From a virus (lineage: Duplodnaviria > Heunggongvirae > Uroviricota > Caudoviricetes), in IMG/VR virus record IMGVR_UViG_3300029653_000151, positions 1 through 13,439 of that record: a DNA stretch of 13,439 bases, one strand, 5' to 3'. The translations under genes and the position numbers were made by a program. A model generated the notes under the pieces. That model did no database searches. It was not told the DNA's origin and was given only the letters and a program-made list of their open reading frames with translations. Shown here piece after piece: positions 1 through 13,439 of the stretch. Position 1 is the stretch's first letter. Every line of letters begins with the position of its first letter.

Positions 1-342
1 ATGATGAAAAAAAGTATTCTGGCGTTTCTGTTACTCACCAGTTCTGCAGCTGCGCTGGCGGCACCGCAGGTGATTACCGTCAGCCGTTTTGAAGTGGGTA
101 AAGACAAATGGGCGTTTAATCGCGAAGAGGTGATGCTGACTTGCCGACCAGGTGATGCTTTGTATGTCATTAACCCAAGTACTCTCGTGCAGTATCCTTT
201 AAACGATATCGCACAAAAGGAAGTTGCCAGTGGGAAGACTAAAGCCCAACCCATTTCGGTGATTCAGATTGATGATCCTAACAATCCCGGCGAAAAAATG
301 AGTCTGGCACCGTTTATAGAGCGAGCTGAAAAACTCTGTTAA
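1..342 (+). CDS. yebY: Small secreted/periplasmic protein, 113 aa, with an N-terminal signal peptide ([22 protein letters not shown]); resembles the DUF2511 protein YebY
   Basis: Complete ORF from ATG at 1 to TAA at 340-342; hydrophobic signal-peptide-like N-terminus with an AxA cleavage motif; followed by a strong hairpin terminator. Name is from recalled similarity to E. coli YebY (113 aa), not a search. Confidence 0.6.
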
Positions 343-372
343 TTACCTAAAATAGCCTTTTGATTTCCAATA

Positions 373-412
373 AAAAACCGCCTCAGTTCTTTCACCAGAA
401 CGGGCGGTTTTT
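373..412. terminator. Bidirectional rho-independent terminator (interrupted stem ccgcc..gttct / agaac..ggcgg, with A-run upstream and T-run downstream)
   Basis: Inverted repeat ccgcctcagttct / agaacgggcgg at about 378-407, flanked by aaaaaa (373-377) and ttttt (408-412), so either strand reads a stem followed by a U-run. Sits 30 bp after the yebY stop. Confidence 0.65.
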
Positions 413-499
413 AACATTTAAGCTGATGACCACCACGCTTTTTATTGACCATTTTGCACGCAAACTGGAAAACCTGGCGTCGTCATCTATTCTTAAAGA

Positions 500-602
500 G
501 CAAGGCAACTAAGCCTGCATTAATGCCAACTTTTAGCGCACGGCTCTCTCCCAAGAGCCATTTCCCTGGACCGAATACAGGAATCGTATTCGGTCTTTTT
601 TT
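500..602 (+). ncRNA. sdsR: SdsR (RyeB)-like small RNA, about 103 nt, ending in an intrinsic terminator
   Basis: Sequence gcaaggcaactaagcctgcattaatgccaactttta...ccaagagcc...ggaccgaatacaggaatcgtattcggtcttttttt matches my recollection of enterobacterial SdsR; a sigma-S-type -10 (ctattct, 486-492) lies 7 nt upstream; a 10-bp perfect hairpin plus T8 run at 569-602 forms the 3' end. No protein-coding signal. Confidence 0.55.
569..602 (+). terminator. Rho-independent terminator (10-bp perfect stem gaccgaatac / gtattcggtc, 7-nt loop, T8 tail)
   Basis: Perfect inverted repeat 569-578 / 586-595 followed by ctttttttt (595-602). Confidence 0.8.
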
Positions 603-733
603 AATTGTATTTAAAATCAATCAGTTGCAAACGTCTTCCCGAAATTCCCCGAAATTTACTCGAATTTCTGTATTCCGGTCTTTTTTGGTTATATCACAAC
701 CAAAATACATTTAACAATCCATTTACGTTAAAA
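603..733. other. Candidate prophage attachment region (attL side), between the sRNA terminator and the integrase stop
   Basis: Integrase 3' end abuts this interval, as attP abuts int in lambda; it holds tandem cgaaatt-type direct repeats (about 640-668) and a partial copy of the SdsR terminator arm (gtattccggtctttttt, 663-679). The exact core cannot be set without the other prophage end. Confidence 0.3.
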
Positions 734-1810
734 TCAGAGTAGTAAGTACGTTTTTTCTCTCTCATCAAGATACATTTTTGTTGTCTTCTCCGATGTGTGG
801 CCAAGTAGACGCTGAGCAAATTCTTCTCCACATGTTTCTTTGTACAATCGTCCAGCCAGACTTCTGATCTCGTGAAAAGTTGGTGGGTTTTCACTGAACT
901 GGATACCTGTTAATTTTCTGGCTGCGACAAATTTTTTTGTCAGGCCATCCGGGTGAATGCTGCCGTCAGGGCTGTTTTTTCTAATCCCGGCACTGATTAG
1001 ATAATCTCCCCGGCTTACCAGGCGGCACTGTTCAACTACTGTACCAAGCCGTAGACCAGCGACAGGAAGGCTGAGTGACAGGGGGATAGCAATCATCATT
1101 CCTGTCTTAATTTGCCTGATGTGGAGACGATCATCATAAATATCACTAAAGCGCATATTCGTTATGTCTTCGCGACGTTGTCCTGTTACAAGGGCTAAAT
1201 CCATAGCTAATGGGAACCATGCCGGAAGTTGATCTGCTGCCTCCCTGATGCAGTTGTATGTCTTTAGTTTCAGTCGTTCTCTTGTAACTACTATTTTCGG
1301 TGCTCTTGTTGGCGTTACTGGATTTTGAGATATACGTCCATCAACAATGGCCTCACGAAACATATCAGACAACACAGAACGCATTGATCCTGCCATTGTG
1401 TTTTTCCCTCCTTCAATCCACAAATCAAGAAACTCGGCAATATGGCGAGTGGTTATTTCTGTCAGTAAAATTTCCCCCAATTTTTCTTTTATTGTCTCCA
1501 GTTGATTTACCCGAATTTTATAAGTATTTCTGGACACTTTTCTCCTTATAAGAATCGTTTTGTAACGTTCAATCCAGTCTGCCATAGTAAATGAGTCGAA
1601 CCCTTTAAGCTTTTCAATTAAGGCAGCAGGAGAGTAGTTTTTGTATATATAATGATTTGCTTCAATTGCCTGCGCTACTGCATCTCTTCTTGAAATTTTA
1701 CCTAGTGTAAATTCTTCTTTCGTCAGAGGGTTGCGCCAGTAATATGCTTTGTCCCTCCTTCGATATGTTAAGTTTTTAGGCAAATTGGGATCGTATTTTT
1801 TCCGCTGCAT
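734..1810 (-). CDS. int: Lambda-family tyrosine integrase (358 aa)
   Basis: Aligns by eye along its length with lambda Int (N-terminal arm-binding region PNLxYRxxxYYxxRxPxTxEEFxLG; C-terminal catalytic region with HxxR and a terminal tyrosine in TTKMYLDE). Start overlaps the excisionase 3' end by 35 nt. Confidence 0.9.
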
Positions 1811-2057
1811 GTTTTAACTTCTCCAGTAACGGACTGTCTCTCCCTTGTCGCCCATTAGGCTGATGGTGTGTTATATCGGTATCAACCTTATTTGGGTTGA
1901 TATAGAAAGCCTCCGGAACCACCCTGTAACTCCTCCCGTGTAGTTCAGGTGCAGGATAAATGTTTCCATTCCTTGCCCATCGTCTCAGCGTTGATATTGA
2001 TGGTGGGTTATCCGGATATCTGAGTTTTCCCCACGTTTTGAGTGTCACAAGATTCAT
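1776..2057 (-). CDS. xis: Excisionase (Xis-like), 93 aa
   Basis: N-terminus MNLVTLKTWGKLRYPDNPPSISTLRRWARNGNIYP resembles lambda Xis; sits directly upstream of and overlapping int. Start set at the second ATG (2057), which has AAGAGG 7 nt upstream; the ATG at 2063 is the alternative. Confidence 0.75.
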   Translation of the reverse strand: MNLVTLKTWGKLRYPDNPPSISTLRRWARNGNIYPAPELHGRSYRVVPEAFYINPNKVDTDITHHQPNGRQGRDSPLLEKLKHAAEKIRSQFA

Positions 2058-2163
2058 TGCCATACCTCTTACGATATGACCGCCAGTAAATATACAGAAT
2101 ACTGGCGGATGTGGTTGATTTTTAATAATCAGCTATGAAGTTCTAATTTGTATATAATGCAAC

Positions 2164-2352
2164 TCACGAGGACAGAAGTTTCTCGCAATTAAAATTTATC
2201 AGCTTTACTTTCTGCTCTCTGGAAACGCCTGCTTCTTTTTTTCCTGAGAGCATTTTTTCGCATTCTGATTTCGTTAATTTAGATTTTGAATATCTTGTCC
2301 AGTTAGTAGGAGTGCCACCTTCCTTTTCAATAGTGGCAGTAATTTTATACAT
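2164..2352 (-). CDS. Small hypothetical protein (62 aa) in the position of Rac ydaC/rcbA
   Basis: ORF with GGAGG 5 nt upstream of the ATG at 2352; occupies the slot between xis and ralR. Identity is by position only; alternative starts at 2364 and 2424. Confidence 0.45.
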   Translation of the reverse strand: MYKITATIEKEGGTPTNWTRYSKSKLTKSECEKMLSGKKEAGVSREQKVKLINFNCEKLLSS

Positions 2353-2539
2353 GAACACCTCCATTATTATTTCCAGTAGTTCGTTTATTCCATCTTTCGA
2401 GTGCTTCTTTTTCACTTCCACCATAGCCAGTTCGGGATTCGCATCCGTTGCATTTTGCCCGGTAATATCCTGAAATTGCTTTCACCGTAACAGATGGACA
2501 ACCACAAAACGGACATGGTTTAACATCGTCATATCTCAT
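2345..2539 (-). CDS. ralR: RalR/Lar restriction-alleviation protein (64 aa), zinc-ribbon (CPFCG..CNGC); reported toxin of the RalR/RalA type I toxin-antitoxin pair
   Basis: MRYDDVKPCPFCGCPSVTVKAISGYYRAKCNGCESRTGYGGSEKEALERWNKRTTGNNNGGVHV matches my recollection of K-12 RalR, including its 64-aa length. In-frame upstream ATGs at 2551 and 2578 are alternatives. Confidence 0.8.
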   Translation of the reverse strand: MRYDDVKPCPFCGCPSVTVKAISGYYRAKCNGCESRTGYGGSEKEALERWNKRTTGNNNGGVHV

Positions 2540-2595
2540 AATTTTTGTCATAAAAACTGTCTCACGTTGGCGGTGCATTACACCGCCAGGCTGAA

Positions 2596-3405
2596 TTATT
2601 CTTCTGAATTATCGATTACACTGTATTCCCCGGTTAATACAGAGGAGTCTGCCGGATCGATTGTCAGTGGTTCCTTTTCATCCATTGATACTGCACGCTG
2701 GATTTCAATTGAGACAGGCAGGTATTTAAACAGGCGACGAATAGCCGTTTTTTTTGCCATTTCTTCCCAGTGAGTTACCCATGGCCCGTTATTACCAGCC
2801 TTACTCTGGCTGCGCACCAGTTCAATCTGTTTGCGCGTCATAACTTCAAACTGAGTCCCTCCGTCTTTCAGTCTTGCGACAGCATAGACGTGGGTCACTG
2901 GTGCATCTTCGTTTTCTCCCGGGCGGTGTATTAACTTTTCATCAAGGCCAAATTCAAAACTAAACTCGTCACCTTCACGGACAACACGGGCTGACAGGCT
3001 GGCGATTTGACCAGAACGGCGAGCCAGATCAATCATGCCGCGATAACCAATGATTAGCTGAACGTTCTTTTTACCGCTCTTTTCGTTTTTATTACCAAAA
3101 GGCAGTAAATATGCGTGGCCGAGGGCGCTACCTGGCTCAAGGCCGAGCTGTGAACACTGAACGATCGCACTGACAAAACTCATGGTGTCACAGTTTCCTA
3201 GCGCCGGAACCTTACGAATTTCTGTGGTGGCGATACGTATCATTCGTTCAGCCGTCATATGGCGTGGGAGAGCTGCTGCCAGTTGCTCTTTCATTGATGG
3301 CTGATTAATAAAGCTGATCACGTCGTTATTTTTTACTGCTGCTGGTGCACGGTTTCCCTGGGTTTTTTGCAGATCGGCTTTTGCGATAGGTGGTTGCTTA
3401 GTCAT
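2596..3405 (-). CDS. recT: RecT single-strand annealing recombinase (269 aa)
   Basis: [36 protein letters not shown]... matches recalled Rac RecT throughout; start chosen at the MTKQ ATG (3405), which overlaps the recE 3' end. Confidence 0.92.
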
Positions 3406-6074
3406 TTGCATACTCCTTAGCCCAGCGGGGCAGTGATAACGTTTTAATAGCTGGCCATTCATCGGTATTCAGGCAGTCAGCCAGGGTCCTCAGATTGCGG
3501 TGATATTCCTGCTGGCCTGCCAGTTTTGCTTCTTCGCCCATCATGAAAATCTCAACCGGGTAACGTCCGCATTCAACAGTTGTGCTGGCAACCAGAAAAA
3601 CGAAAGTTGGCAGCACACCAAACTGTGCTTCATAACCGTCACTGTAGAATGCATCCTGAACGTGATAGCGGTAGTCGTAATAAGCCGTTTTGAATCGTTG
3701 AATATCCGCTGTGGTTTTCACGTCCATGATCCAGTGAAATTCAGGGATAATTTTGTCCGGACGGCACCGACACAAAATTCCTGTTTCAGGATCTTCCCAG
3801 TAAATTGATGATTCAGCGTGTCCGGCGCTTTCAACAAGCCATTGACCCAGCGGCAAAGCCATAACGCTCTGATACATGAGTTCAATTTTCCGGCCTTCTT
3901 CGGCAGTGATAACCGTTTTTCCTGTGCTTGCGCATTCCATCAGAAACGCTTTCTCCTCTTCTTTTCCGGCGGTTGTACGGCGGTTAAATTCAGGTGCCAC
4001 GATAAAGCGGTTACTGAATTCTTCCGGTTCAAGTACACGGCAGTGGAAAGCGGTTCCTAAATCGAGCGTTTTTGTCTTTGTGGTGTCCACTGGGGGCATT
4101 TTTACGCCACAAATACAGAGCCGGAGTATCAGCAATGTCGTCGAGCTGAGACTTACTGACACCGGGACCCGCGTGGTAATTCTCATTCGAAATTCCGTAA
4201 TAAATACCAGGCTCTATGTCTCCTGCGATTACGGGATCTGCGACTTCGCCAGTTTCATCACTGCAATCGCGATGCGGATCGCTGCCAGCATTCTCATTGT
4301 GCGGATGTTCAGGGCCTTCCATTTCCTCCGGATCTTTTTCCTGAGATTCATCCAGATTTTCTTCATTAAAGGTTTCCTGATATGTGGTGTCGCCCATCAC
4401 CGCGCCACAATCAGGGCAGTTGCCGCCACCGCTCTGACCGCGGGCGGCACAGACTTTTTCCGGTTCCTGTTGCGCTACTGGTTCAGATTGTTTCGTTTCT
4501 GGCTCATTTTTCTGTGCATTTTGGCTGTTTTGTTCCGCTTTCTGGTTGTTTTGTTCCGATTTGGGCTGGTTCTGGTTCACAGAATCTCGGGTTTCAATTC
4601 CCTTAACCCATTTCGGATCATTCGGGTCGCTAATCCCTTCAACAAATTCTCCGCGAGAGGCAGCCAGTAATTTGTCTGCATCGACAGGATTTTTGGGCGG
4701 AATGTTTTTCCGGGCTTCATAGAGTTCTGCCCGCAGTTTCTGATATTTCGCATCAACAGAATTTACCTGTGACTGAGCATCCAGCGGCTGCGTGTCCTGA
4801 TGATGTTCAGTTGCATCCGGTTCCACTGTTTCAGCCGTTGCCTGTTCATCTGCCATTGCGCAAGATGGTTGCAGTTTTTCTTCATCATCCTGTTTTTCTT
4901 CTTCTGTTACACGCTGCGGCATCGGGGCAGAGGAACGACCGCAGGCAATATCCACGATTTCTGGATCAGGGTTGGCATGATCAGTTTCAGTCAGTACTTT
5001 GTTAAGATATTCAGTGACGTGTGCGGGGATAACCTCGATCCCAATTGGTGCTTCTTTTACGGACGCAACCACGATGGCGCGGGAATAATCCAGCCCGCCA
5101 GGCATGGTGATGAATTTGTCGCGGAAAACAGAAAAGGGCGGTTTATTTTCAGCGATAATTTCCTCGACACGTTTAGCGTGTGCCGGATGAAGGTTATAAA
5201 TGTCCACGTCCATTGAACGAGCCAGTACGCCAGTGGCTACGTCGCGCGCCAGTGACGTCAGATCGTGAATGAAACCTTCGCCGCGATCGGTGAGGTTCCC
5301 GCCGCCAGCATTAGCGCCGGAAGCCGTGCGCGTGATGCGTGAAACACGATTTCCTTTCATCCACTCTTTTGTCAGCAGACCGCGATCGGTGTAGTCTGCG
5401 TCCAGGTATGCTTCGAAAAAAGCAGTCATCAGCCCCAGGCTTGAATTGCCTGGATTAGGGAAAACTCTGTCAGTATCACGCACCAGTTTGTGGAGATCGC
5501 GAATTTCCAGCGGGTCGAGCAGGCTGGTTTTGTGGGAAACAGCCAGGGCAGTAACGGCTGGTAGTTCTTCAGCTCGTGCAATGTGTAATGCCTGTAGTTC
5601 GTTGCGTGAAACGTGCGTTACCGGTTTTTCGCTGCCGTGTTGAGCAAGCCAGCGAATGGGCAGCTCCTGACCGGAAATCGGGAGTAGCATATTCTCCTCA
5701 ATCTCCGTCATGTCTTCGCCATTAACATTGGTATTGTCAGTGCTGGCTGGCTTGTCCTGCGCAGAGGATGAGGGCGCGATAAATACCATTGTGATGCCAT
5801 CTTCCCCGCCTTTTTCGTAACGGTTGCAGAATTCCGTATCAAATACGCCTTCTGGTGGAAGGTCATCAACAACGGGCAAATTGACGCGAACAGGTTTTTT
5901 AAAGTCATCTTCATCGTAGCCAGCATCGTCAATCGCAACAGCACCACGGGAGATGGCAATGGATAATTTTTTCGCTTCAGCCCAGTAGAAACCGCCTTTA
6001 ATACCGAGACGTTTTCTTACTTTGTCATTTTTTGCTTCGTAATACAGTGGGTAAACTTGTTTATCGGTGCTCAT
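3398..6074 (-). pseudogene. recE: recE (exonuclease VIII) split by a frameshift into a 681-aa N-terminal ORF (4029-6074) and a C-terminal nuclease-domain ORF (3398-4186)
   Basis: Two minus-strand ORFs in different frames overlap by 158 bp and together read as one RecE. The upstream frame reaches ...[10 protein letters not shown] then runs into nonsense and a stop; the downstream frame continues [19 protein letters not shown]... through the PD-(D/E)xK motif (RPDK...IMDVKT) to ...WAKEYAND. The switch sits at a G5 run (plus 4092-4096). Confidence 0.75.
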
Positions 6075-6143
6075 TGCTTTTTAACCTCAACTCAGATTAA
6101 AATTAATGCGAGTGATGAATAAATGTCCCAGGTTCTTCACTCA

Positions 6144-6174
6144 GGCCTGCACAGTGTGCAGGCTTTCTTTTTTT
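6144..6174 (+). terminator. Plus-strand-oriented intrinsic terminator-like hairpin (gcctgcac agt gtgcaggc, then tttcttttttt)
   Basis: 8-bp perfect stem 6145-6152 / 6156-6163 followed by an 11-nt T-rich run on the plus strand only; no plus-strand gene lies upstream. Confidence 0.5.
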
Positions 6175-6180
6175 CAGATT

Positions 6181-6450
6181 TCACCTTTTAATTTCATTGC
6201 AATCAGAGTTGCCAGAAATTCGGCTTTTTTTTTCTGCGGGCAGATTCTTTCCTATGTGCACCAGACACATTTTTTTAACACCATCGTTAAGTGTTTTAAC
6301 GTTGCCTGATGGACCGTCGATATCAACCACAGTGAATGGGGTTTCTTTATTTTCTGTCTTAATCACGTAGCCAATACGCTTTCCTTCCAGGGTAACTTCG
6401 TGAACAATGTCATCAGTAGTAACAACAGTGGCTTCATAACTGGTAATCAT
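6181..6450 (-). CDS. racC: RacC-like protein (89 aa)
   Basis: MITSYEATVVTTDDIVHEVTLEGKRIGYVIKTENKETPFTVVDIDGPSGNVKTLNDGVKKMCLVHIGKNLPAEKK... matches recalled Rac RacC; AAGGAG 6 nt upstream of the ATG at 6450. Confidence 0.75.
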   Translation of the reverse strand: MITSYEATVVTTDDIVHEVTLEGKRIGYVIKTENKETPFTVVDIDGPSGNVKTLNDGVKKMCLVHIGKNLPAEKKSRISGNSDCNEIKR

Positions 6451-6524
6451 GTTTTTCTCCTTAATTAAGGTTGAGCGAATCCCTGCCATTGCTGGCATAA
6501 ATTCAGTTTCGGATAGTCAGTTAA

Positions 6525-6695
6525 TTAAAGTTCGTGTGCCATCTGGTCTTTTTCGGCACAGATTTCACTACAATATTTTTTCATTTCCGTCGTTGGTATA
6601 ACTCCACGCATGAAATGAAGTGGTCTTGTAATGATTTTGCTTTCTTCAATTTCTTTATTGCAAAGGTGATAAGCACATTTTATTTTCTTAGTCAT
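6525..6695 (-). CDS. ydaE: YdaE-like small cysteine-rich protein (56 aa), below the size cut-off of the supplied ORF track
   Basis: Hand-translated minus strand: [56 protein letters not shown], stop TAA at 6525-6527. Its ATG overlaps the kilR stop (TAATG), indicating translational coupling. Confidence 0.7.
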   Translation of the reverse strand: MTKKIKCAYHLCNKEIEESKIITRPLHFMRGVIPTTEMKKYCSEICAEKDQMAHEL

Positions 6696-6916
6696 TACCA
6701 TGACTCCGCCTTTACAGGTAAACCATCACGACCGAGGAAGACTTTAATCATGCAGTCAGAAATGCATGTTTTTGTAGTCAGGCTACGAATATAAAGTTTT
6801 CGCTTTTTAATATTGTTTGCCGAGGCGATATATGTCCGACCTTCATGAAGAACATAATCGCCAGGGGTCACACACTGACGTGGTATTTCATCAGTTCCGA
6901 AGTGATGAGCAATCAT
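6695..6916 (-). CDS. kilR: KilR cell-division inhibitor (73 aa)
   Basis: [73 protein letters not shown] matches recalled Rac KilR; GGAG 6 nt upstream of the ATG at 6916. Confidence 0.8.
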
Positions 6917-7324
6917 AATTATCTCCATTTTTACAAATGAATTTTGTCGATGCGGTGCCTGGTGCCTCCAGGTGACGTTAACCAGTTAACAATTAACGCC
7001 GGATAATCCACCCATAACACTGATGCTTTTAACTGTGCCGCGTGCGCTTAGCCGCATTCACTGCATCACAAAATTCACTTTAAAAAGGGGCGGCAGGGCA
7101 GCCACGGAGTAGAACTGATGCCGCCAAAGACTACACATAGCAATGTCGTTATTTACAACCGGAGGCGCACTCCCACCATTTAAATTTAACAGACAAGAAC
7201 GACTCTTTATGGATATCGGAAATGCGCCTTCGTGTTGTGCCCGGTTTTATTTCACCACCTCCGGGCTTTGGTGGTTTCTGCTATACCCCTACAGCGAGAA
7301 TATTGAATTAATCCAAATAATGGA

Positions 7325-7477
7325 TTAGCAAGTATTTCTGGCAAGCCAGCGACGTGCGCCAGCTTCGGTTTTAAACGTTTTGCTTTTGGTATACGTCATG
7401 GCGGTGAATGTGCCGTCCTGATTGGGAAACACGCCACATACCAGAGATTCGTTGTTGCCAAGATCGATAGTATCCAT
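7325..7477 (-). CDS. Small Rac-type protein (50 aa), YdaG/YdaF-like
   Basis: MDTIDLGNNESLVCGVFPNQDGTFTAMTYTKSKTFKTEAGARRWLARNTC; GAGG 5 nt upstream of the ATG at 7477; first ORF downstream of the PL-like promoter. I cannot say from memory whether it is ydaF or ydaG. Confidence 0.5.
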   Translation of the reverse strand: MDTIDLGNNESLVCGVFPNQDGTFTAMTYTKSKTFKTEAGARRWLARNTC

Positions 7478-7659
7478 GTTGACCTCATTTCCCCTTAACG
7501 CCGGGTGGCGGAACGTTTTATCTACTGCGCTTTGTATCAATCAACAACTGCCGTCATGTTCGTATGCCTCAGGCTGGCTACTTAGCCCTGTTCAGTGGCT
7601 GGATAACTCGAGGTATTGTCCTGCCGTTCTCTGGTGGGGCGTTGTTTGGATATGCTTAT

Positions 7660-7710
7660 TAAACACAATACGTTTTCTTGTGTCAACACGGAATGTGTTT
7701 TGTGGTGGGT
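7660..7710 (-). promoter_or_regulatory. PL-like leftward early promoter with overlapping operator-like palindromes
   Basis: On the minus strand: -35 TTGACA (plus 7691-7696), 17-nt spacer, -10 TTTAAT (plus 7668-7673). Overlapped by inverted repeats acacaa-N9-ttgtgt (7673-7696) and aacac-N5-gtgtt (7695-7709) that resemble the palindrome between racR and ydaS. Confidence 0.5.
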
Positions 7711-7736
7711 GTCATATGATGATGGTACAAAAAAGC

Positions 7737-7759
7737 CCGCTGATAGCGGGCTGATTGGC
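7737..7759 (-). terminator. Rho-independent terminator downstream of racR
   Basis: Minus strand reads GCCCGC-tatca-GCGGGC followed by TTTTTT (plus: aaaaaa 7737-7742, gcccgc 7743-7748, tgata, gcgggc 7754-7759), 24 bp after the racR stop. Confidence 0.75.
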
Positions 7760-7782
7760 ATATTACTGTGATAGCAAGATCA

Positions 7783-8202
7783 TTACTCCGGTGGGGGATT
7801 ATCTTTAAGCCTGCCTCTCAAATATTTTTCTACATACTCATCGATTTCTTTTAGCCGGACTTCAAATAGCTCAATCATTCGTTGTTGTTCTGAGCCCGGT
7901 AGCTGGTTAAACAACTCAAGAAGTTTTCGTTGGGATTCATTTAACCACAATTCAGAAGATTCCTGTTCTCCAAAGAGGAGCTCAGGAGGAGATATGCCAA
8001 GTGCCTTTCCCAATATGACAGCGTCATGCACTCCAACATTTCTGCTGCCCGCCTCATAGTTACCTATACGCGATTGCGTCCATCCGCAGATTTCAGCAAG
8101 TTTTCCTTGAGATAAACCAAGCTTCTGCCTGCGCTCTTTAAGACGCATTGCAATTTTGTCATTGAGCCTACTAGCGGCAATTTTTTCGTTTTCTTTTTCC
8201 AT
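7783..8202 (-). CDS. racR: RacR-like XRE/cI-family prophage repressor (139 aa)
   Basis: N-terminal helix-turn-helix (LSQGKLAEICGWTQSRIGNYEAG); divergent from the cro-like ydaS across an operator-bearing intergenic region. Shorter than the 158 aa I recall for K-12 RacR, so allelic identity is uncertain. Confidence 0.7.
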   Translation of the reverse strand: MEKENEKIAASRLNDKIAMRLKERRQKLGLSQGKLAEICGWTQSRIGNYEAGSRNVGVHDAVILGKALGISPPELLFGEQESSELWLNESQRKLLELFNQLPGSEQQRMIELFEVRLKEIDEYVEKYLRGRLKDNPPPE

Positions 8203-8298
8203 TGCATCCTTGTATCACGAATCGTGATTTACATAAAACACAAAATAGCTTGACCATATAACACAAGGTGTGTTTAAAATTGTCATCGGAGGTTTTCA
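8203..8298. promoter_or_regulatory. Divergent promoter/operator region between racR and ydaS
   Basis: Perfect 15-bp palindrome atcacga-a-tcgtgat (8214-8228); second palindrome aacaca-agg-tgtgtt (8260-8274); -35-like TTGACC (8250-8255) and AT-rich -10-like taaaat (8275-8280); GGAGG 6 nt before the ydaS ATG. Confidence 0.6.
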
Positions 8299-8541
8299 AT
8301 GAACAAAATTTCAACATATCGAAAACAGCTTGGGCTGTCTCAAAGACAACTTGCTGTTCAGTTAGGGTGGATACAAAGCCGACTGGCAAATTACGAAGCA
8401 AATTTTCGTACCCCTGGACTAGAGGAGTGCAGAAAAATTGTTTCTACCCTTAATCGGCTTGGCGCTCATTGTGGACTTGACGATGTATTCCCCCCAGACG
8501 GTAAGCATAGCGAAAACAGCATAGGAGCGGTTGATTCATGA
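8299..8541 (+). CDS. ydaS: Cro-like helix-turn-helix protein (80 aa), YdaS-like
   Basis: HTH segment LGLSQRQLAVQLGWIQSRLANYEA; divergent from the repressor; stop overlaps the ydaT start (ATGA). Confidence 0.7.
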   Translation: MNKISTYRKQLGLSQRQLAVQLGWIQSRLANYEANFRTPGLEECRKIVSTLNRLGAHCGLDDVFPPDGKHSENSIGAVDS

Positions 8542-8963
8542 AAATCAGGCATAAGCACATCGAATCAGTGTTGTTAGCCCTGGCAGCCGAAAAAGGGCAG
8601 GCGTGGGTCGCTAACGCAATTACTGAAGAATATCTGCGCCAGGGGGGGGGCGGCGAATTGCCCCTTATACCAGGCAAGGACTGGAACAATCAGCAGAATA
8701 TCTATCACCGTTGGTTGAAAGGTGAAACGAAAGCGCAAAGGGAAAAAATTCAGAAACTGATCCCTGCGGTTCTGGCAATTCTTCCGCGCGAGCTGCGTCA
8801 CCGACTCTGCATCTTCGATACCCTGGAACGCCGTGCATTACTGGCGGCGCAGGAAGCGTTGAGTACGGCAATTGATGCGCATGATGATGCAGTCCAGGCC
8901 GTTTACCGGAAAGCACATTTCAGCGGTGGTGGGTCGCCCGGCGATTCTGTCGTAGTGCATTGA
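8538..8963 (+). CDS. ydaT: YdaT-like protein (141 aa)
   Basis: Position directly after ydaS with ATGA overlap; length matches the roughly 140 aa I recall for K-12 YdaT. Contains a G9 homopolymer (8642-8650) encoding Gly-Gly-Gly-Gly. Confidence 0.65.
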   Translation: MKIRHKHIESVLLALAAEKGQAWVANAITEEYLRQGGGGELPLIPGKDWNNQQNIYHRWLKGETKAQREKIQKLIPAVLAILPRELRHRLCIFDTLERRALLAAQEALSTAIDAHDDAVQAVYRKAHFSGGGSPGDSVVVH

Positions 8964-9007
8964 TTGAAATTAATCGTGCCGGATTGTTTTGTTCGGTATC
9001 AGTTAAA

Positions 9008-9426
9008 TGTAACGACGCGAGCGTTACAAGGTGAAAACAAATGGCTTCAAACTGGATAAAGCTCGAGGTTATTACGCCGGATAAGCCGGAAATATTCAGG
9101 CTTGCTGAGATTCTGAATATTGATCCAGATGCCGCATTAGGGAAGGTTATTCGCTTCTGGGCATGGGCGGATCAACAAATGATAGACGGTAATGCAGATT
9201 GTAACGCTCGCGGCGTTACAAAAAGTGCAATAGATCGCATCACTTTTATGGCTGGTTTTGCTGATGCGTTAATTCAGGTTGGATGGCTGGTCGAAAATGA
9301 CGTTGGGCTTTCTCTACCTAACTTTGAACGTCATAACGGAAAAAGCTCAAAAAAACGGGCGGTTACAAACGAGCGAGTTACAAAAATACGCGAACTGAAA
9401 CGAAAGGGTAACGCTGCCAGCGTTAC
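9008..9426. repeat. Cluster of gtaacg-N7-cgttac palindromes and gttaca half-sites: candidate origin iterons or regulator binding sites
   Basis: tgtaacg-acgcgag-cgttaca (9008-9028, upstream of the ydaU ATG); ttgtaacg-ctcgcgg-cgttacaa (9199-9221); direct half-sites gttacaaacgagcgagttaca (9362-9382); gtaacg-ctgccag-cgttac (9408-9426). Sites 1 and 2 are the same 21-mer in opposite orientation with one mismatch. Confidence 0.5.
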
Positions 9427-9829
9427 ACAAACGGATCAAAAAGCGTTACCAGAGGAAGAGGAAGAGGAAGATATAAATACTGATCTCCCCCTAAATCCCC
9501 CTCGCCAAAAACGAGCGTCTAAAAAATTCGAGCCGGAGGCTATCGAGCTGCCTGACTGGTTGCCGGAAACACTCTGGCATGAGTGGGTTCAGTTCAGGCA
9601 GGCATTGCGAAAACCGATTCGAACGGAGCAGGGCGCTAACGGGGCGATACGGGAACTGGAAAAATTCCGTCAGCAGGGTTTTACACCTGAGCAGGTGATT
9701 CGACACAGCATCGCCAATGAATACCAGGGCTTGTTCGCACCGAAAGGTGTTCGGCCTGAGACGTTGCTCCGACAGGTTAACACCGTCTCGTTGCCGGACA
9801 GTGCGATCCCGCCAGGCTTCAGGGGGTAA
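9041..9829 (+). CDS. ydaU: Phage replication initiation protein, lambda O-like / YdaU-like (262 aa)
   Basis: Sits directly upstream of a DnaC-like loader as in O-P type modules; carries internal palindromic repeats and an acidic EEEEEED stretch. Confidence 0.65.
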   Translation: MASNWIKLEVITPDKPEIFRLAEILNIDPDAALGKVIRFWAWADQQMIDGNADCNARGVTKSAIDRITFMAGFADALIQVGWLVENDVGLSLPNFERHNGKSSKKRAVTNERVTKIRELKRKGNAASVTQTDQKALPEEEEEEDINTDLPLNPPRQKRASKKFEPEAIELPDWLPETLWHEWVQFRQALRKPIRTEQGANGAIRELEKFRQQGFTPEQVIRHSIANEYQGLFAPKGVRPETLLRQVNTVSLPDSAIPPGFRG

Positions 9830-9835
9830 CAGACC

Positions 9836-10582
9836 ATGAAAAATATTGCGACAGGCGGCGTTCTGGAGCGTATCCGCAGACTGACCCCACCACATGTAAC
9901 CGCCCCATTCAGAACGGTTGCGGAGTGGCGTGAGTGGCAACTTGCTGAAGGCCAGAAACGTTGCGAGGAGATCAACCGCCTGAATCGTCAGTTGCGGGTG
10001 GAAAAAATTCTGAATCGCTCTGGCATCCAGCCGTTGCACCGTAAATGCTCGTTTGCGAATTACCAGGTGCAGAACGACGGCCAGCGATACGCGTTAAGTC
10101 AGGCGAAATCCATCACCGATGAACTGATGACCGGGTGTACAAATTTTGCGTTCAGCGGAAAACCTGGTACCGGGAAGAATCACTTAGCGGCAGCTATCGG
10201 GAATCGCCTGCTGAAAGACGGTCAGACAGTGATTGTGGTTACCGTGGCTGATGTTATGAGCGCCCTGCACGCCAGCTATGACGACGGGCAGTCAGGCGAA
10301 AAATTTTTGCGGGAGCTGTGCGAAGTGGATCTGCTGGTTCTTGATGAAATTGGCATTCAGCGCGAGACAAAAAACGAGCAGGTGGTGCTGCACCAGATTG
10401 TTGATCGCCGGACAGCGTCGATGCGCAGCGTGGGGATGCTGACAAACCTGAACTATGAGGCCATGAAAACATTGCTCGGCGAGAGGATTATGGATCGCAT
10501 GACCATGAACGGCGGGCGATGGGTGAATTTTAACTGGGAGAGCTGGCGTCCGAATGTCGTCCAGCCAGGAATTGCGAAGTGA
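9836..10582 (+). CDS. ydaV: DnaC/IstB-like AAA+ helicase loader (248 aa), YdaV-like
   Basis: Walker [16 protein letters not shown] and Walker B LLVLDEIG; 248 aa matches the length I recall for K-12 YdaV. Confidence 0.85.
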
Positions 10583-10604
10583 TTTTTACCTGGAGGAAAT
10601 TTTA

Positions 10605-11366
10605 ATGGAGACTGTTTTTGACGCACTGAAAGCAATGGGAAAAGCCACGTCGGTAGAACTGGCTGCGCGACTTGATATCAGTCGTGAAGAGGTACTGAAC
10701 GAGCTGTGGGAACTGAAAAAGGCTGGTTTCGTTGATAAAAGCGTATACACCTGGCGTGTGGCTGATAACAACGTTCAGCAGGAACAGCCAGCGCCAGAAG
10801 AACAGCCGGAAGAAACCACCACGGCGACAGTAGCGAAAATCTCAGAGTGCGATTTAACCGCAACGATTGAACAACGCGGACCACAAACGGCGGATGAACT
10901 GGCTACGTTTTTCGGCATCACATCACGCAAAGTGGCTTCAACGCTGGCAATGGCAATCAGCAAAGGGCGTCTGATTCGCGTGAATCAGGGCGGTAAATTT
11001 CGTTACTGCATACCGGGTGCTGATTTACCGGCAGAGCCGGAAGCTGCATCCGTAGCGGAAACCGATGGTAAAGCCTTTCCTCAGCCAGCAGGTGTTGCGT
11101 TACCAGTACAGGAAATGATGGCACAGGAAGAAATGAAAACAGAAATCGTGGAAGACATTGTGAGGTTACAGCCATCGATCACCGAAATGAAAGCAGATGA
11201 CCTGATTCTACCATCGCTGCATGTGGCTAACCGCGAGCTGCGCCGGGCGAAAAGTGATGTCCAGAAGTGGGAGCGAGTCTGTGCTGCGCTGCGGGAGCTG
11301 AACAAGCACCGGGATATTGTTCGACAGATTACTGATTCTTCCCGCCGTGTTGTATCGGAAAAGTGA
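10605..11366 (+). CDS. Hypothetical phage protein (253 aa) with two winged-helix-like segments, an acidic linker and a C-terminal coiled-coil-like tail
   Basis: GGAGG 7 nt upstream of the ATG at 10605; segments [30 protein letters not shown] and [32 protein letters not shown] look like winged-helix DNA-binding units. Possibly the intact counterpart of ydaW; not verified. Confidence 0.55.
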
Positions 11367-11381
11367 TTGCCGGAGGCGCTT

Positions 11382-11774
11382 ATGGCAAAAGTATTTACAC
11401 CAGAAGAGCGGGAAGAAGTGAAGGCGCGCATTGTGGAATTCGTGCGCCTGAGCGGACGAGAAACTTTTCGACAACTGGCAGATAAAACGGGTGTCAGTAA
11501 GACCGCTATTCGTCGTTTATCTGGTGCGCTTGCGGCCAGTGGTGATGTCTGGCTCTCTGGTTGCGGGGTATTTCCATCAGAGCAGGCGTATCGCGTATGG
11601 CGTAAGACACCGGAGAAGGCTGCTGACCCGACACTGATTCGAAAGTTACCTGACGGAGAAATACGTCGTTACAACAGACGGCAGAACATAATTTGTCGTG
11701 AGTGCCGCCAGAGCGAAGTTATGCAGCGTGTGCTGGCGTTCTATCGGGGAAACTTTCAGGAGGTGATGGAGTGA
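11382..11774 (+). CDS. Hypothetical phage protein (130 aa) with a possible HTH and a CxxC pair
   Basis: GGAGG 5 nt upstream of the ATG at 11382; stop overlaps the next gene's GTG start. Confidence 0.55.
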   Translation: MAKVFTPEEREEVKARIVEFVRLSGRETFRQLADKTGVSKTAIRRLSGALAASGDVWLSGCGVFPSEQAYRVWRKTPEKAADPTLIRKLPDGEIRRYNRRQNIICRECRQSEVMQRVLAFYRGNFQEVME

Positions 11775-12067
11775 GGGTCAGAGTTTATATTGCCGGTCCA
11801 ATGACGGGATATGAAAATTTCAACCGTGAGGCGTTTCACAAGGCGGAAGAGGAACTGAAACGGGAAGGGCATACCGTCTTAAACCCGGCAGTACTTCCGG
11901 ACGGGCTGACACAGCCGCACTACATGGATATTTGCATGGCAATGATTCGTTGTGTGGATGCGATTTACATGCTGAATGGCTGGCAGCGGTCAGCGGGCGC
12001 TAAGGCAGAGCTGGCACTGGCGGAGAAACTGGGGCATGCAGTGATTTATCAGGAGGTGGCTCAATGA
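11771..12067 (+). CDS. DUF4406-like protein (nucleoside 2-deoxyribosyltransferase-like fold), about 98 aa
   Basis: Motif VYIAGPMTGYENFNREAFHKAEEELKREGHTVLNPAVL is typical of the DUF4406 / deoxyribosyltransferase-like family as I recall it. GTG start at 11771 with GGAGG 7 nt upstream; the ATG at 11801 is the alternative. Stop overlaps the next start (ATGA). Confidence 0.55.
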   Translation: MRVRVYIAGPMTGYENFNREAFHKAEEELKREGHTVLNPAVLPDGLTQPHYMDICMAMIRCVDAIYMLNGWQRSAGAKAELALAEKLGHAVIYQEVAQ

Positions 12068-12525
12068 GAGAGGTTAACTATGAGGCGCTTCGTGAGGCAG
12101 CACAAAACTATCAGTCGACGCTGGCGTGGTATCAGGCTATCCCGGACAGCCCAAATGCTGAACGGGATTGTGATGCGGCTCTTGCTGCGTTTAAGCGTCA
12201 CATCCGTCATCGGGAAGCGGATATTATCGCTGATTTGCTGGATGGACTGGAAGAAGCAAAATCACAACTCAAAGAGCAGCGTGAGTATTACGAAGGCGTT
12301 ATCTCTGATGGGAGCAAGCGTATTGCTGAACTGGAAGCGCGGGAAGTTCAATTACCGACTCGCTACGACCTTCGATATGGACACCCGATAAATGCAGATG
12401 AGCGACATGTCATGATACCTAAAGAAAATGGCAGTTGGCTTTACCTGATTGACCTAGAACACGCATTACGCGTCTCTGGCATTCGCATCAAAGGAGAGGA
12501 GCATGGAAATAAAACCAGAGGATGA
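12064..12525 (+). CDS. Hypothetical phage protein (153 aa) with a central coiled-coil-like region
   Basis: ORF translationally coupled to its upstream neighbour (ATGA); no recognisable motif. Confidence 0.5.
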   Translation: MREVNYEALREAAQNYQSTLAWYQAIPDSPNAERDCDAALAAFKRHIRHREADIIADLLDGLEEAKSQLKEQREYYEGVISDGSKRIAELEAREVQLPTRYDLRYGHPINADERHVMIPKENGSWLYLIDLEHALRVSGIRIKGEEHGNKTRG

Positions 12526-12859
12526 GTTAAGCAATATCGTTTTATTTCCGGTAAAAGAGGATGACCCTCGTAATCAGGTTAATTTTCTTTATGAGCCATC
12601 GGAAAGACCATATTGTCATCACGCCTCTGTCCGGGTTGACGAAAAAGAGCGTCAGGTCCGCTGTAAAATCTGCGGTGCAGTTGTGGAGCCATTTGACTGG
12701 ATGCTCTCTGTGGCGAAAAGAGAAACCAGACTGGCAGATGATGTAAGGCACTTGCGCCAGGAGGAGCGGGAAAGGCGAAAAAATATAGAAAAGCTAATTC
12801 AGATTGAGCGTAACGCGAAAGCGCGGATACGCAGGGCGACAAAATCCAGAACTGAATAA
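12503..12859 (+). CDS. Hypothetical phage protein (118 aa) with a zinc-ribbon-like C..HH..CxxC segment and a basic coiled-coil tail
   Basis: GGAGAGGAG directly upstream of the ATG at 12503; CHHASVRVDEKERQVRCKICG motif; overlaps the 3' end of the preceding ORF. Confidence 0.5.
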   Translation: MEIKPEDELSNIVLFPVKEDDPRNQVNFLYEPSERPYCHHASVRVDEKERQVRCKICGAVVEPFDWMLSVAKRETRLADDVRHLRQEERERRKNIEKLIQIERNAKARIRRATKSRTE

Positions 12860-12982
12860 TTAAATTTAGCTCTGTTAAAAATTTAATCCTTAACCGGAGG
12901 GATTTCTGCACCCTCAGAACATCAGGAGGCCGTCCGAAAGGGCGGTAGTGAAATGCGAAAATTCAAAATAATTATTGAAACG

Positions 12983-13439
12983 TAGACTGGCCCCCTGAAT
13001 CTCCAGACAACCAATATCACTTATTTAAGTGATAGTCTTAATACTAGTTTTTAGACTAGTCATTGGAGAACAGATGATTGATGTCTTAGGGCCGGAGAAA
13101 CGCAGACGGCGTACCACACAGGAAAAGATCGCAATTGTTCAGCAGAGCTTTGAACCGGGGATGACGGTCTCCCTCGTTGCCCGGCAACATGGTGTAGCAG
13201 CCAGCCAGTTATTTCTCTGGCGTAAGCAATACCAGGAAGGAAGTCTTACTGCTGTCGCCGCCGGAGAACAGGTTGTTCCTGCCTCTGAACTTGCTGCCGC
13301 CATGAAGCAGATTAAAGAACTCCAGCGCCTGCTCGGCAAGAAAACGATGGAAAATGAACTCCTCAAAGAAGCCGTTGAATATGGACGGGCAAAAAAGTGG
13401 ATAGCGCACGCGCCCTTATTGCCCGGGGATGGGGAGTAA
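12983..13439 (+). mobile_element. IS2 (IS3 family) insertion sequence, partial: terminal inverted repeat, leader and orfA; the rest lies beyond the window
   Basis: Starts with tagactggccccctgaatctccagacaaccaatatcac..., which I recognise as an IS2 terminus; followed by the InsC ORF. IS2 is about 1.3 kb, so it runs past the window end. Confidence 0.85.
13074..13439 (+). CDS. insC: IS2 OrfA (InsC) transposase DNA-binding subunit, 121 aa
   Basis: [58 protein letters not shown]... matches recalled IS2 InsC; stop TAA at 13437-13439. The frameshift-fused OrfAB would continue beyond the window. Confidence 0.85.

Follow-up and report, generated by a model that had tools for sequence, protein, structure and literature searches.

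Why does a phage replication gene carry three copies of one long palindrome, two of them inside its own coding sequence, followed by a run of purines? The question is raised by a stretch of 13,439 nucleotides (IMG/VR virus record IMGVR_UViG_3300029653_000151, positions 1 to 13,439; hereafter the window), which is an Escherichia coli Rac-like prophage. The gene in question (9041-9829, ATG at 9041) encodes a replication protein of 262 amino acids, which we call the initiator. A sequence-only reading of the window had singled out the palindromes as candidate origin iterons comparable to those within the O gene of lambda. The analysis reported here suggests that the three palindromes, an orphan half-site and a GA tract, all in or just upstream of the initiator gene, probably form the lytic origin. 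From the distribution of these sequences among related phages, we infer that the palindromes, or dyads, are the sites to which the initiator binds.

Three dyads, an orphan half-site and a purine tract

How unusual are the palindromes? The exact core GTAACG-N7-CGTTAC occurs three times in the window, at 9009-9027, 9201-9219 and 9408-9426, against an expectation of 0.01 derived from 200 shuffles of the window, and no fourth match was found in the 13.4 kb even when one mismatch was allowed. The sequence-only reading was right about both the number of palindromes and the placement of one of them upstream of the start codon. The unit it described, six bases on either side of a seven-base spacer, is exact as a core, but the family consensus given below makes the real unit longer, with arms of eight bases around a spacer of three (8+3+8).

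Dyad 1 (9008-9028; TGTAACGACGCGAGCGTTACA) consists of the arms TGTAACG and CGTTACA around ACGCGAG. It is non-coding and lies in the gap between ydaT and the initiator gene, just ahead of the Shine-Dalgarno sequence, ending 13 nt ahead of the ATG at 9041. Dyad 2 (9200-9220; TGTAACGCTCGCGGCGTTACA) has the same arms around CTCGCGG and falls on the codons for CNARGVT (residues 54-60), at a position (+149/+161) that is kept across the family. Dyad 3 (9407-9427; GGTAACGCTGCCAGCGTTACA), composed of GGTAACGCT and AGCGTTACA around GCC, encodes GNAASVT (residues 123-129) in a disordered linker. It is a perfect 8+3+8 palindrome that fully matches the family consensus, and it occupies the site position most widely kept in the family (+338 to +400). 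The spacing from dyad to dyad is 192 and 207 bp, which agrees with the earlier remark that the sites are more widely spaced than the iterons of lambda (20-24 bp). Dyads 1 and 2 had been described as the same 21-mer in opposite orientations; they are indeed reverse complements, but at 21 of 22 positions rather than identically. All of the palindromes lie within, or just ahead of, the portion in which the gene departs from K-12 ydaU. A degenerate left half-site, GTAATG, is also seen 6 nt ahead of dyad 2 (9189-9194, codons G-N-A); it corresponds to a four-residue insertion, NADC, found in the enterobacterial clade only, as if a half-site had been duplicated.

The last dyad is followed on the plus strand by an orphan half-site, GCGTTAC (9443-9449, codons A-L-P), which stands directly ahead of a GA polypurine tract (AGAGGAAGAGGAAGAGGAAGA, 9451-9471, plus strand). 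The tract is a run of 21 purines, the longest of the window, and encodes EEEEEE. The (GAGGAA)3 repeat noticed earlier is present inside this run, at 9452-9469, about 10 nt further right than the interval first given for it (9442-9460). An A/T patch, TATAAATACT (9472-9481), lies directly 3' of the tract. Among E. coli relatives the acidic segment reads E4, E6, E8 or EEEKEE, a variation which implies that the GA tract expands and contracts in hexamer units. Two direct GTTACA half-sites, correctly placed by the sequence-only reading within 9362-9382, occupy 9362-9367 and 9377-9382 on the plus strand (codons AVT and RVT). This pair is confined to the E. coli clade and may represent auxiliary sites; orphan GTTAC counts in the +310 bin come from close relatives only. 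Because distant members read RALTNRRVA at this position, a role of the pair at the level of DNA is uncertain.

The dyads are under selection as DNA

Is it the DNA or the encoded peptide that is conserved? Both in-gene copies do encode the repeated peptide NAxxVT in one codon phase (CNARGVT and GNAASVT), as the sequence-only reading had pointed out. Taken over 156 distinct sites, the consensus is (T/G)GTAACGC(T/A)-NNN-AGCGTTACA, an 8+3+8 dyad. The dyad in the linker is read in two phases. In phase 1, which is that of both in-gene copies of the window, xGT-AAC-GCx gives xNAxxVT; in phase 2, GTA-ACG...CG-TTA-C gives VTxxxL(Q/P). The third codon phase would create a TAA stop. The flank positions C6, A11, G12 and A19 are conserved to the same degree whichever of the two phases is used, and also in the upstream copies outside coding sequence.

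The choice of codons is as constrained as the choice of residues. In N...VT motifs defined by peptide, Asn is encoded by AAC in 99% of cases (background 65%), Val by GTT in 96% (background 32%) and Thr by ACA in 68% (background 20%). In VT...L motifs the codons GTA, ACG and TTA each reach 97%, against backgrounds of 11%, 27% and 11%. These preferences persist at loci with a GC content of at least 0.55, where GTT is used in 47 of 50 cases and TTA in 21 of 22. Since the background frequencies include other half-sites, the contrasts are conservative. Among enterobacterial relatives the arms never change and the central bases vary freely. The same is true of the non-coding upstream site, a copy restricted to that clade, which lies at -31 to -43 and combines invariant arms with freely varying spacers; most family members have no upstream copy and carry in-gene dyads only. 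Selection on the dyads as DNA is strong. Because synonymous codons are fixed, a second frame is used and non-coding copies exist, the repeated NAxxVT peptide is a consequence of the DNA element, contrary to the suggestion that it might be the cause of the repeats.

The dyads travel with the N-terminal domain across phyla

How far does this arrangement extend? A scan of viral contigs for TGTAACG-N7-CGTTACA, based on DNA only, yielded 119 loci, of which about 80 code for a homologue (36-100% identity) of the N-terminal domain of the initiator, hereafter the N-domain (amino acids 1-138; 9041-9454, plus strand), which is the proposed dyad-binding module. In these loci the dyads recur at -31 to -43, at about +149/+161 and at +340 to +400. 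To remove selection bias, 240 loci were then retrieved with peptide patterns lying clear of the codons of the dyads, and exact GTAACG-N7-CGTTAC sites were counted within -200 to +700 of the gene start. At least one site was present in 80 of 80 loci of a close viral set (216 sites), in 32 of 80 loci of a distant viral set with 30-43% identity (33 sites) and in 46 of 80 loci from species-representative genomes (73 sites). In total, 158 of the 240 loci carry 322 sites in or just upstream of the gene, and the approximately 984 kb of DNA flanking those loci contains no exact dyad.

Complete genomes give the same picture. The Rac-like phage vB_EcoS-673R7 (complete, 37.8 kb) has three dyads, all at the initiator gene, and the whole genome of epsilon15 (NC_004775.2) has two, only at the initiator gene. 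The sequence-only reading had made its proposal depend on the scarcity of the motif elsewhere and on its conservation in related prophages; both hold, and conservation extends from the close loci to members of only 30-40% protein identity and to other phyla. Isolates in the genome set belong to Akkermansia, Stieleria, Novipirellula, Pantoea and Samsonia, and are joined by many metagenome-assembled genomes, whose taxonomy is to be read with the caveat that mis-binned phage contigs may be included. Pseudomonas members of this set mostly carry the dyad with one mismatch. The family is also present in epsilon15-like Salmonella phages and in Xanthomonas, Ralstonia and Pseudomonas phages, and the hosts of its dyad-bearing members span several phyla, from E. 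coli to Akkermansia and Planctomycetes. Only 2 of 72,556 PLSDB records carry the family on a plasmid, and the idea that it represents a plasmid replicon was rejected.

Which gene product accompanies the dyads? Homologues of the cI, cro, ydaT and ydaV products of the window and of the C-terminal domain of the initiator are missing from most distant dyad-bearing loci, and the N-domain is the only gene product always found with the dyads. Moreover, where the exact motif is missing, most loci have a variant dyad of the same 6-N7-6 geometry at the same gene positions. The variants fall into the classes GTCCGC-N7-GCGGAC (often GTCCGCAT-NNN-ATGCGGAC, and including epsilon15), GTCACG-N7-CGTGAC and CTAACG-N7-CGTTAG, and one Pseudomonas clade has GTAACG...CGTTAG. 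On a neighbour-joining tree of the N-domains, the dyad classes cluster. The dyads always travel with the N-domain and change their sequence in step with it. One divergent clade of viral contigs (L272-L281) has no 6-N7-6 dyad and carries GTCCCC-N3-GGGGAC at about +429, where the geometry of the site may have changed. In epsilon15, the stretch 35244-35576 within the initiator gene contains two GTCCGC-N7-GCGGAC dyads and an orphan GCGGAC, and its AGAGA repeats (35554-35576) are the longest polypurine run of the genome. The epsilon15 record, although richly annotated, has neither an annotated origin nor a helicase-loader gene beside the initiator.

A single column of the N-domain alignment is fixed within dyad classes and different between them. 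This is residue 113, where V goes with the GTAACG and CTAACG dyads, K with the GTCCGC class and Q with the GTCACG class. In the window its Val codon (9377-9379) lies within a conserved basic helix (residues 103-122; 9347-9406). Residue 113 is a candidate specificity determinant; because the classes are phylogenetically clustered, the pattern is a lead rather than proof.

A conserved junction between half-site and tract

Within the gene, half-sites are restricted to the intervals +130 to +220 and +310 to +430. Directly 5' of the tract, members throughout the family have a half-site matched to their dyad class and followed by C(T), as in GCGTTAC-C, GCGTGAC-C, GCGTCAC-C and TGCGGA(C/G)-C. The family has one conserved, origin-like junction, which runs from the last dyad through the matching half-site and C(T) into (AGAGA)n or (GAGGAA)n. 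Of 181 non-redundant loci, 136 have the longest purine or pyrimidine run of their entire sequence of about 5 kb on the coding strand between +300 and +560; its median length is 20 nt. The usual tract of the family is (AGAGA)n, read as EKRREEK; that of the window is (GAGGAA)3, read as E6. Arginine within the tract is encoded by AGA in 93% of cases, compared with 5% for the N-domain, and this preference persists where the GC content of the locus is 60-67%. The first 6 nt 3' of the tract are 76% A/T across the family.

A chimeric initiator

What kind of protein is encoded here? The gene had been read as ydaU, which holds for its C-terminal half. Residues 139-262 are 81% identical to residues 162-285 of K-12 YdaU over 124 amino acids, and BLASTP aligns nothing else. 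The N-domain has no similarity to the DUF1376 domain of K-12 YdaU (residues 1-161; hhalign probability 0.16%). A Pfam scan of the initiator assigned no family to it, including PF07120, Phage_rep_O, Rep_3 and Phage_rep_org_N, and neither did an NCBIfam scan. The initiator is a chimera relative to K-12 YdaU, being YdaU-like in its C-terminal half only, with an N-domain from another family. Genes annotated as 'ydaU' encode N-terminal modules of two kinds, which are unrelated and come with separate repeats. At full length (amino acids 1-262) the initiator matches PHROG 2509, 'replication initiation protein' (E=2.2e-89; profile positions 1-277 of 277), and its tblastn matches include 'replication initiation protein' genes of epsilon15, CP2 and phiPSA1.

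The C-terminal domain (amino acids 170-262; 9548-9826, plus strand) is DnaT-like. It matches PDB 2ru8, the C-terminal domain of DnaT (E=1.3e-4), as well as PDB 9zbt (E=4.4e-4), and some relatives match Pfam PF17948, DnaT. Many family members have other C-terminal domains and still keep the dyads and the tract. An AlphaFold model of the initiator has a pLDDT of 74, and structural comparison of the fold gave weak matches only. The pLDDT falls below 50 at residues 52-55 (the loop encoded at dyad 2) and 123-138 (the linker encoded at dyad 3). In this low-confidence loop and disordered linker, the protein can accommodate a sequence dictated by the DNA.

A probable origin and how it might work

How might these parts act together? 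Each 19-bp dyad would be bound by dimers of the N-domain; the centres of its two 8-bp arms lie about one turn of the helix from each other. The basic helix of the N-domain (residues 103-122) is probably involved. A further protomer would occupy the orphan half-site beside the tract, and the bound complex would destabilise or melt the A/G-rich region 9451-9481, so that the GA tract and the A/T patch are proposed as the unwinding or single-strand entry region. The DnaT-like domain would then hold the single-stranded DNA and bring the host DnaB by way of the DnaC-like protein YdaV, a partner that the initiator probably recruits. Dyads 1 and 2, which lie farther from the tract and some 200 bp from each other, would reinforce the complex or loop it, and the upstream dyad 1 may additionally dampen expression.

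Several points weigh against an origin at these sites. Our literature search gave no binding, unwinding or replication data for any family member, and literature on oriJ, ydaU, the motif string and DnaT-like phage initiators contained no description of these sites; a paper on replication of 'Eru' Stx phages concerns other genes. With roughly 200 bp from one full dyad to the next, the arrangement resembles no well-studied iteron array. The GA tract has a GC content of 0.40 and is purine-rich rather than clearly A/T-rich. The dyads could also fold as RNA hairpins of -8 to -12 kcal/mol. Finally, the published primers for oriJ of the K-12 Rac prophage map in ydaV, outside ydaU (PMC3945230). As given in supplementary file 4 of that study, the oriJ-framing primers lie in K-12 ydaV, 260-415 bp downstream of ydaU, which corresponds to about 10093-10250 of the window.

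Alternative explanations

Could the same sequences work in another way? A further reading of the origin, which we think unlikely, is that it fires by means of its own transcript. Transcription of the initiator gene would yield a purine-rich RNA over the tract, which would form an unusually stable R-loop on the pyrimidine template strand, and initiator bound at the neighbouring half-site and dyad would load DnaB on the displaced strand by means of its DnaT-like domain. If this were true, initiation would be primosome-style and targeted by sequence, with protein, sites and melting tract contained in about 450 bp of one gene. It would be a self-contained cassette working in hosts of several phyla. 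Segments of the protein, namely the GNAxSVT loop and the ALP-EKRREEK linker, would then be set by the cis-element and not the reverse.

It is also unlikely that the dyads are only operator or roadblock sites, bound by the initiator or by some other regulator and controlling transcription or translation of the replication operon, with the origin elsewhere. Dyad 1 stands just ahead of the Shine-Dalgarno sequence and the ATG, and dimers of plasmid Rep proteins bind inverted repeats for autorepression. The upstream copy is absent in most family members, however, the positions +161 and +368 would suit an operator badly, and the junction of half-site and polypurine tract is left unexplained. Promoter prediction in the gap between ydaT and the initiator gene was negative, and the possibility that dyad 1 overlaps a promoter was dropped for this reason. 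The location of the published K-12 oriJ primers in ydaV also speaks for an origin elsewhere, but ydaV is absent from most dyad loci and epsilon15 has no loader gene beside its initiator.

We regard it as very unlikely that the palindromes, instead of being bound as duplex DNA, function as hairpins of the mRNA or of single-stranded DNA, for example in processing, translational control or primosome assembly. RNA hairpins predicted for the three dyads are stable (-7.7, -11.9 and -10.0 kcal/mol; z-scores -2.6 to -5.1), both arms change together between clades, and the DnaT-like domain hints at primosome chemistry. Against this, the stem is identical across phyla without compensatory drift and occurs in only four or five discrete classes. 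Orphan half-sites, which are unable to pair, are conserved and co-vary with the dyad class, and conserved one-mismatch variants oppose G-G or G-A rather than forming wobble pairs. An Rfam search gave no match apart from one at chance level (E=0.8), which lies outside the dyads.

Equally slim is the chance that the dyads are bound by some other protein, be it a host factor, YdaT, Cro or cI, and lie in the gene by coincidence. Genes for YdaT and for Cro-like and cI-like DNA-binding proteins do stand immediately upstream, and TGTAACG loosely resembles half-sites of the LacI/GalR type. Hardly any of the distant dyad-bearing loci has these neighbours, however, and the classes of dyad follow the tree of the N-domain. 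A host factor of identical specificity across phages of Enterobacterales, Pseudomonas, Akkermansia and Planctomycetes is implausible. A methylase or restriction site, a packaging site and a LacI-type operator were likewise rejected because the motif is confined to the initiator gene and tracks the N-domain across phyla. That the repeats are a by-product of an NAxxVT peptide needed by the protein, with no DNA-level role, can practically be dismissed: both in-gene copies of the window encode xNAxxVT in the same phase, but synonymous positions are fixed, VTxxxL(Q/P) is read in another frame, non-coding upstream copies exist and the coded segments are a low-confidence loop and linker.

Comparison with known origins

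Is an origin of this kind lambda-like, as the sequence-only reading proposed? The comparison holds in that dyads inside the initiator gene are followed by a polypurine tract, and fails in that dyads and half-sites are dispersed rather than tandem. Lambda has four 18-bp dyad iterons within O (39034-39118), followed by an 18-nt purine run, aaaagaaaaaagaaaaga. Its origin lies in the middle of O and each iteron is an inverted repeat; two iterons and the adjacent tract suffice for unwinding, and O binds single strands of the tract (PMC7466680). The two systems share dyad-symmetric sites of 18-19 bp inside the coding sequence of the initiator itself, and an A/G-rich polypurine tract after the last site. 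This tract falls in a linker that joins an N-terminal part, which binds DNA, to a C-terminal part, which recruits the helicase loader. In both, a helicase-loader gene comes next downstream. They differ in that the initiator is unrelated to O (hhalign probability 0.25%; no Phage_rep_O match) and that lambda has four tandem iterons 20-24 bp apart, whereas the full dyads of the window are 192 and 207 bp apart. Of the three dyads of the window one is outside the gene, and only one full dyad, together with half-sites, is found less than 90 bp from the tract. The tract of the family is (GAGGAA)n or (AGAGA)n, unlike the A-rich tract of lambda, and the loader is DnaC-like, not P. The dyad and tract arrangement is best read as analogous to the lambda origin, not homologous to it.

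The K-12 Rac prophage has the same order of repressor, cro-like gene, ydaT, initiator gene and ydaV, and shares the C-terminal region of the initiator. It has a different N-terminal domain, no GTAACG dyads and no GA tract. The linker of K-12 ydaU (NC_000913.3, about 1421471-1421577) carries repeats of its own, four direct copies of (A)GATGTTCAAACA and further inverted ones, ahead of the shared C-terminal domain. It is plausible that these are the cognate sites of the DUF1376-type N-domain, and possibly they mark the true oriJ. The presence of separate repeats in the equivalent linker fits an exchange of N-domain and cognate sites as one module.

Other systems offer partial parallels. Rep proteins of iteron plasmids (pPS10, pSC101, F-type RepA) bind inverted repeats as dimers and direct repeats as monomers. 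The initiator of the window differs from them, having no Rep_3 or winged-helix-pair signature, being nearly absent from plasmids and having no promoter over the inverted repeat. In SPP1, the binding boxes of G38P (oriL) lie inside its own gene 38, with a helicase loader downstream, but the initiator described here has no Phage_rep_org_N match, and the sequence and architecture of the sites differ. DnaT, or primosomal protein I, resembles the initiator in its C-terminal single-stranded-DNA-binding domain, which residues 170-262 match; it lacks a domain for sequence-specific binding of an origin, and its role is in PriA-dependent restart.

The gene neighbourhood

The order of genes in the window begins with the integrase, recT/recE and kilR, ahead of a cI-like repressor gene (7783-8202, minus strand). 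These are followed by a cro-like gene (8299-8541), ydaT (8538-8963) and the initiator gene. The next gene, ydaV (9836-10582, plus strand), starts 6 nt past the stop codon of the initiator gene and encodes a DnaC-like helicase loader (NCBIfam PRK12377, 5e-153, and DnaC, 2e-90; Pfam IstB_IS21). The recE gene of the window is present as two overlapping open reading frames on the minus strand (3398-4186 and 4029-6074, together spanning 3398-6074). A genome identical over a 1-kb query covering the initiator region (8900-9900) is annotated with one recE of 2676 nt. The split may reflect a frameshift, in which case the prophage may be partly defective. Rac-like prophages, which are among the carriers of this initiator family, are found in more than one quarter of complete E. 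coli genomes.

Implications

What does this arrangement mean for the phages that carry it? An origin inside the initiator gene is textbook, and the origin of this family is without description in the literature we found. Features that we found nowhere described are a 19-bp dyad that is kept across phyla and read in two frames, discrete specificity classes of dyad that co-vary, the dispersed rather than tandem placing of the sites, and an (AGAGA)n tract constrained as DNA that doubles as a charged linker. The locus offers a clean natural case of a cis-element that overlaps coding sequence and shapes its codons and even segments of peptide. The pairing of dyad classes with residue 113 suggests a simple recognition code. 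The signature of dyad and GA tract could be used to annotate prophage origins, and compact cassettes of initiator and origin with orthogonal specificities could follow. For a widespread and unstudied family of phage initiators, these observations propose a concrete origin and a probable code linking initiator and site.

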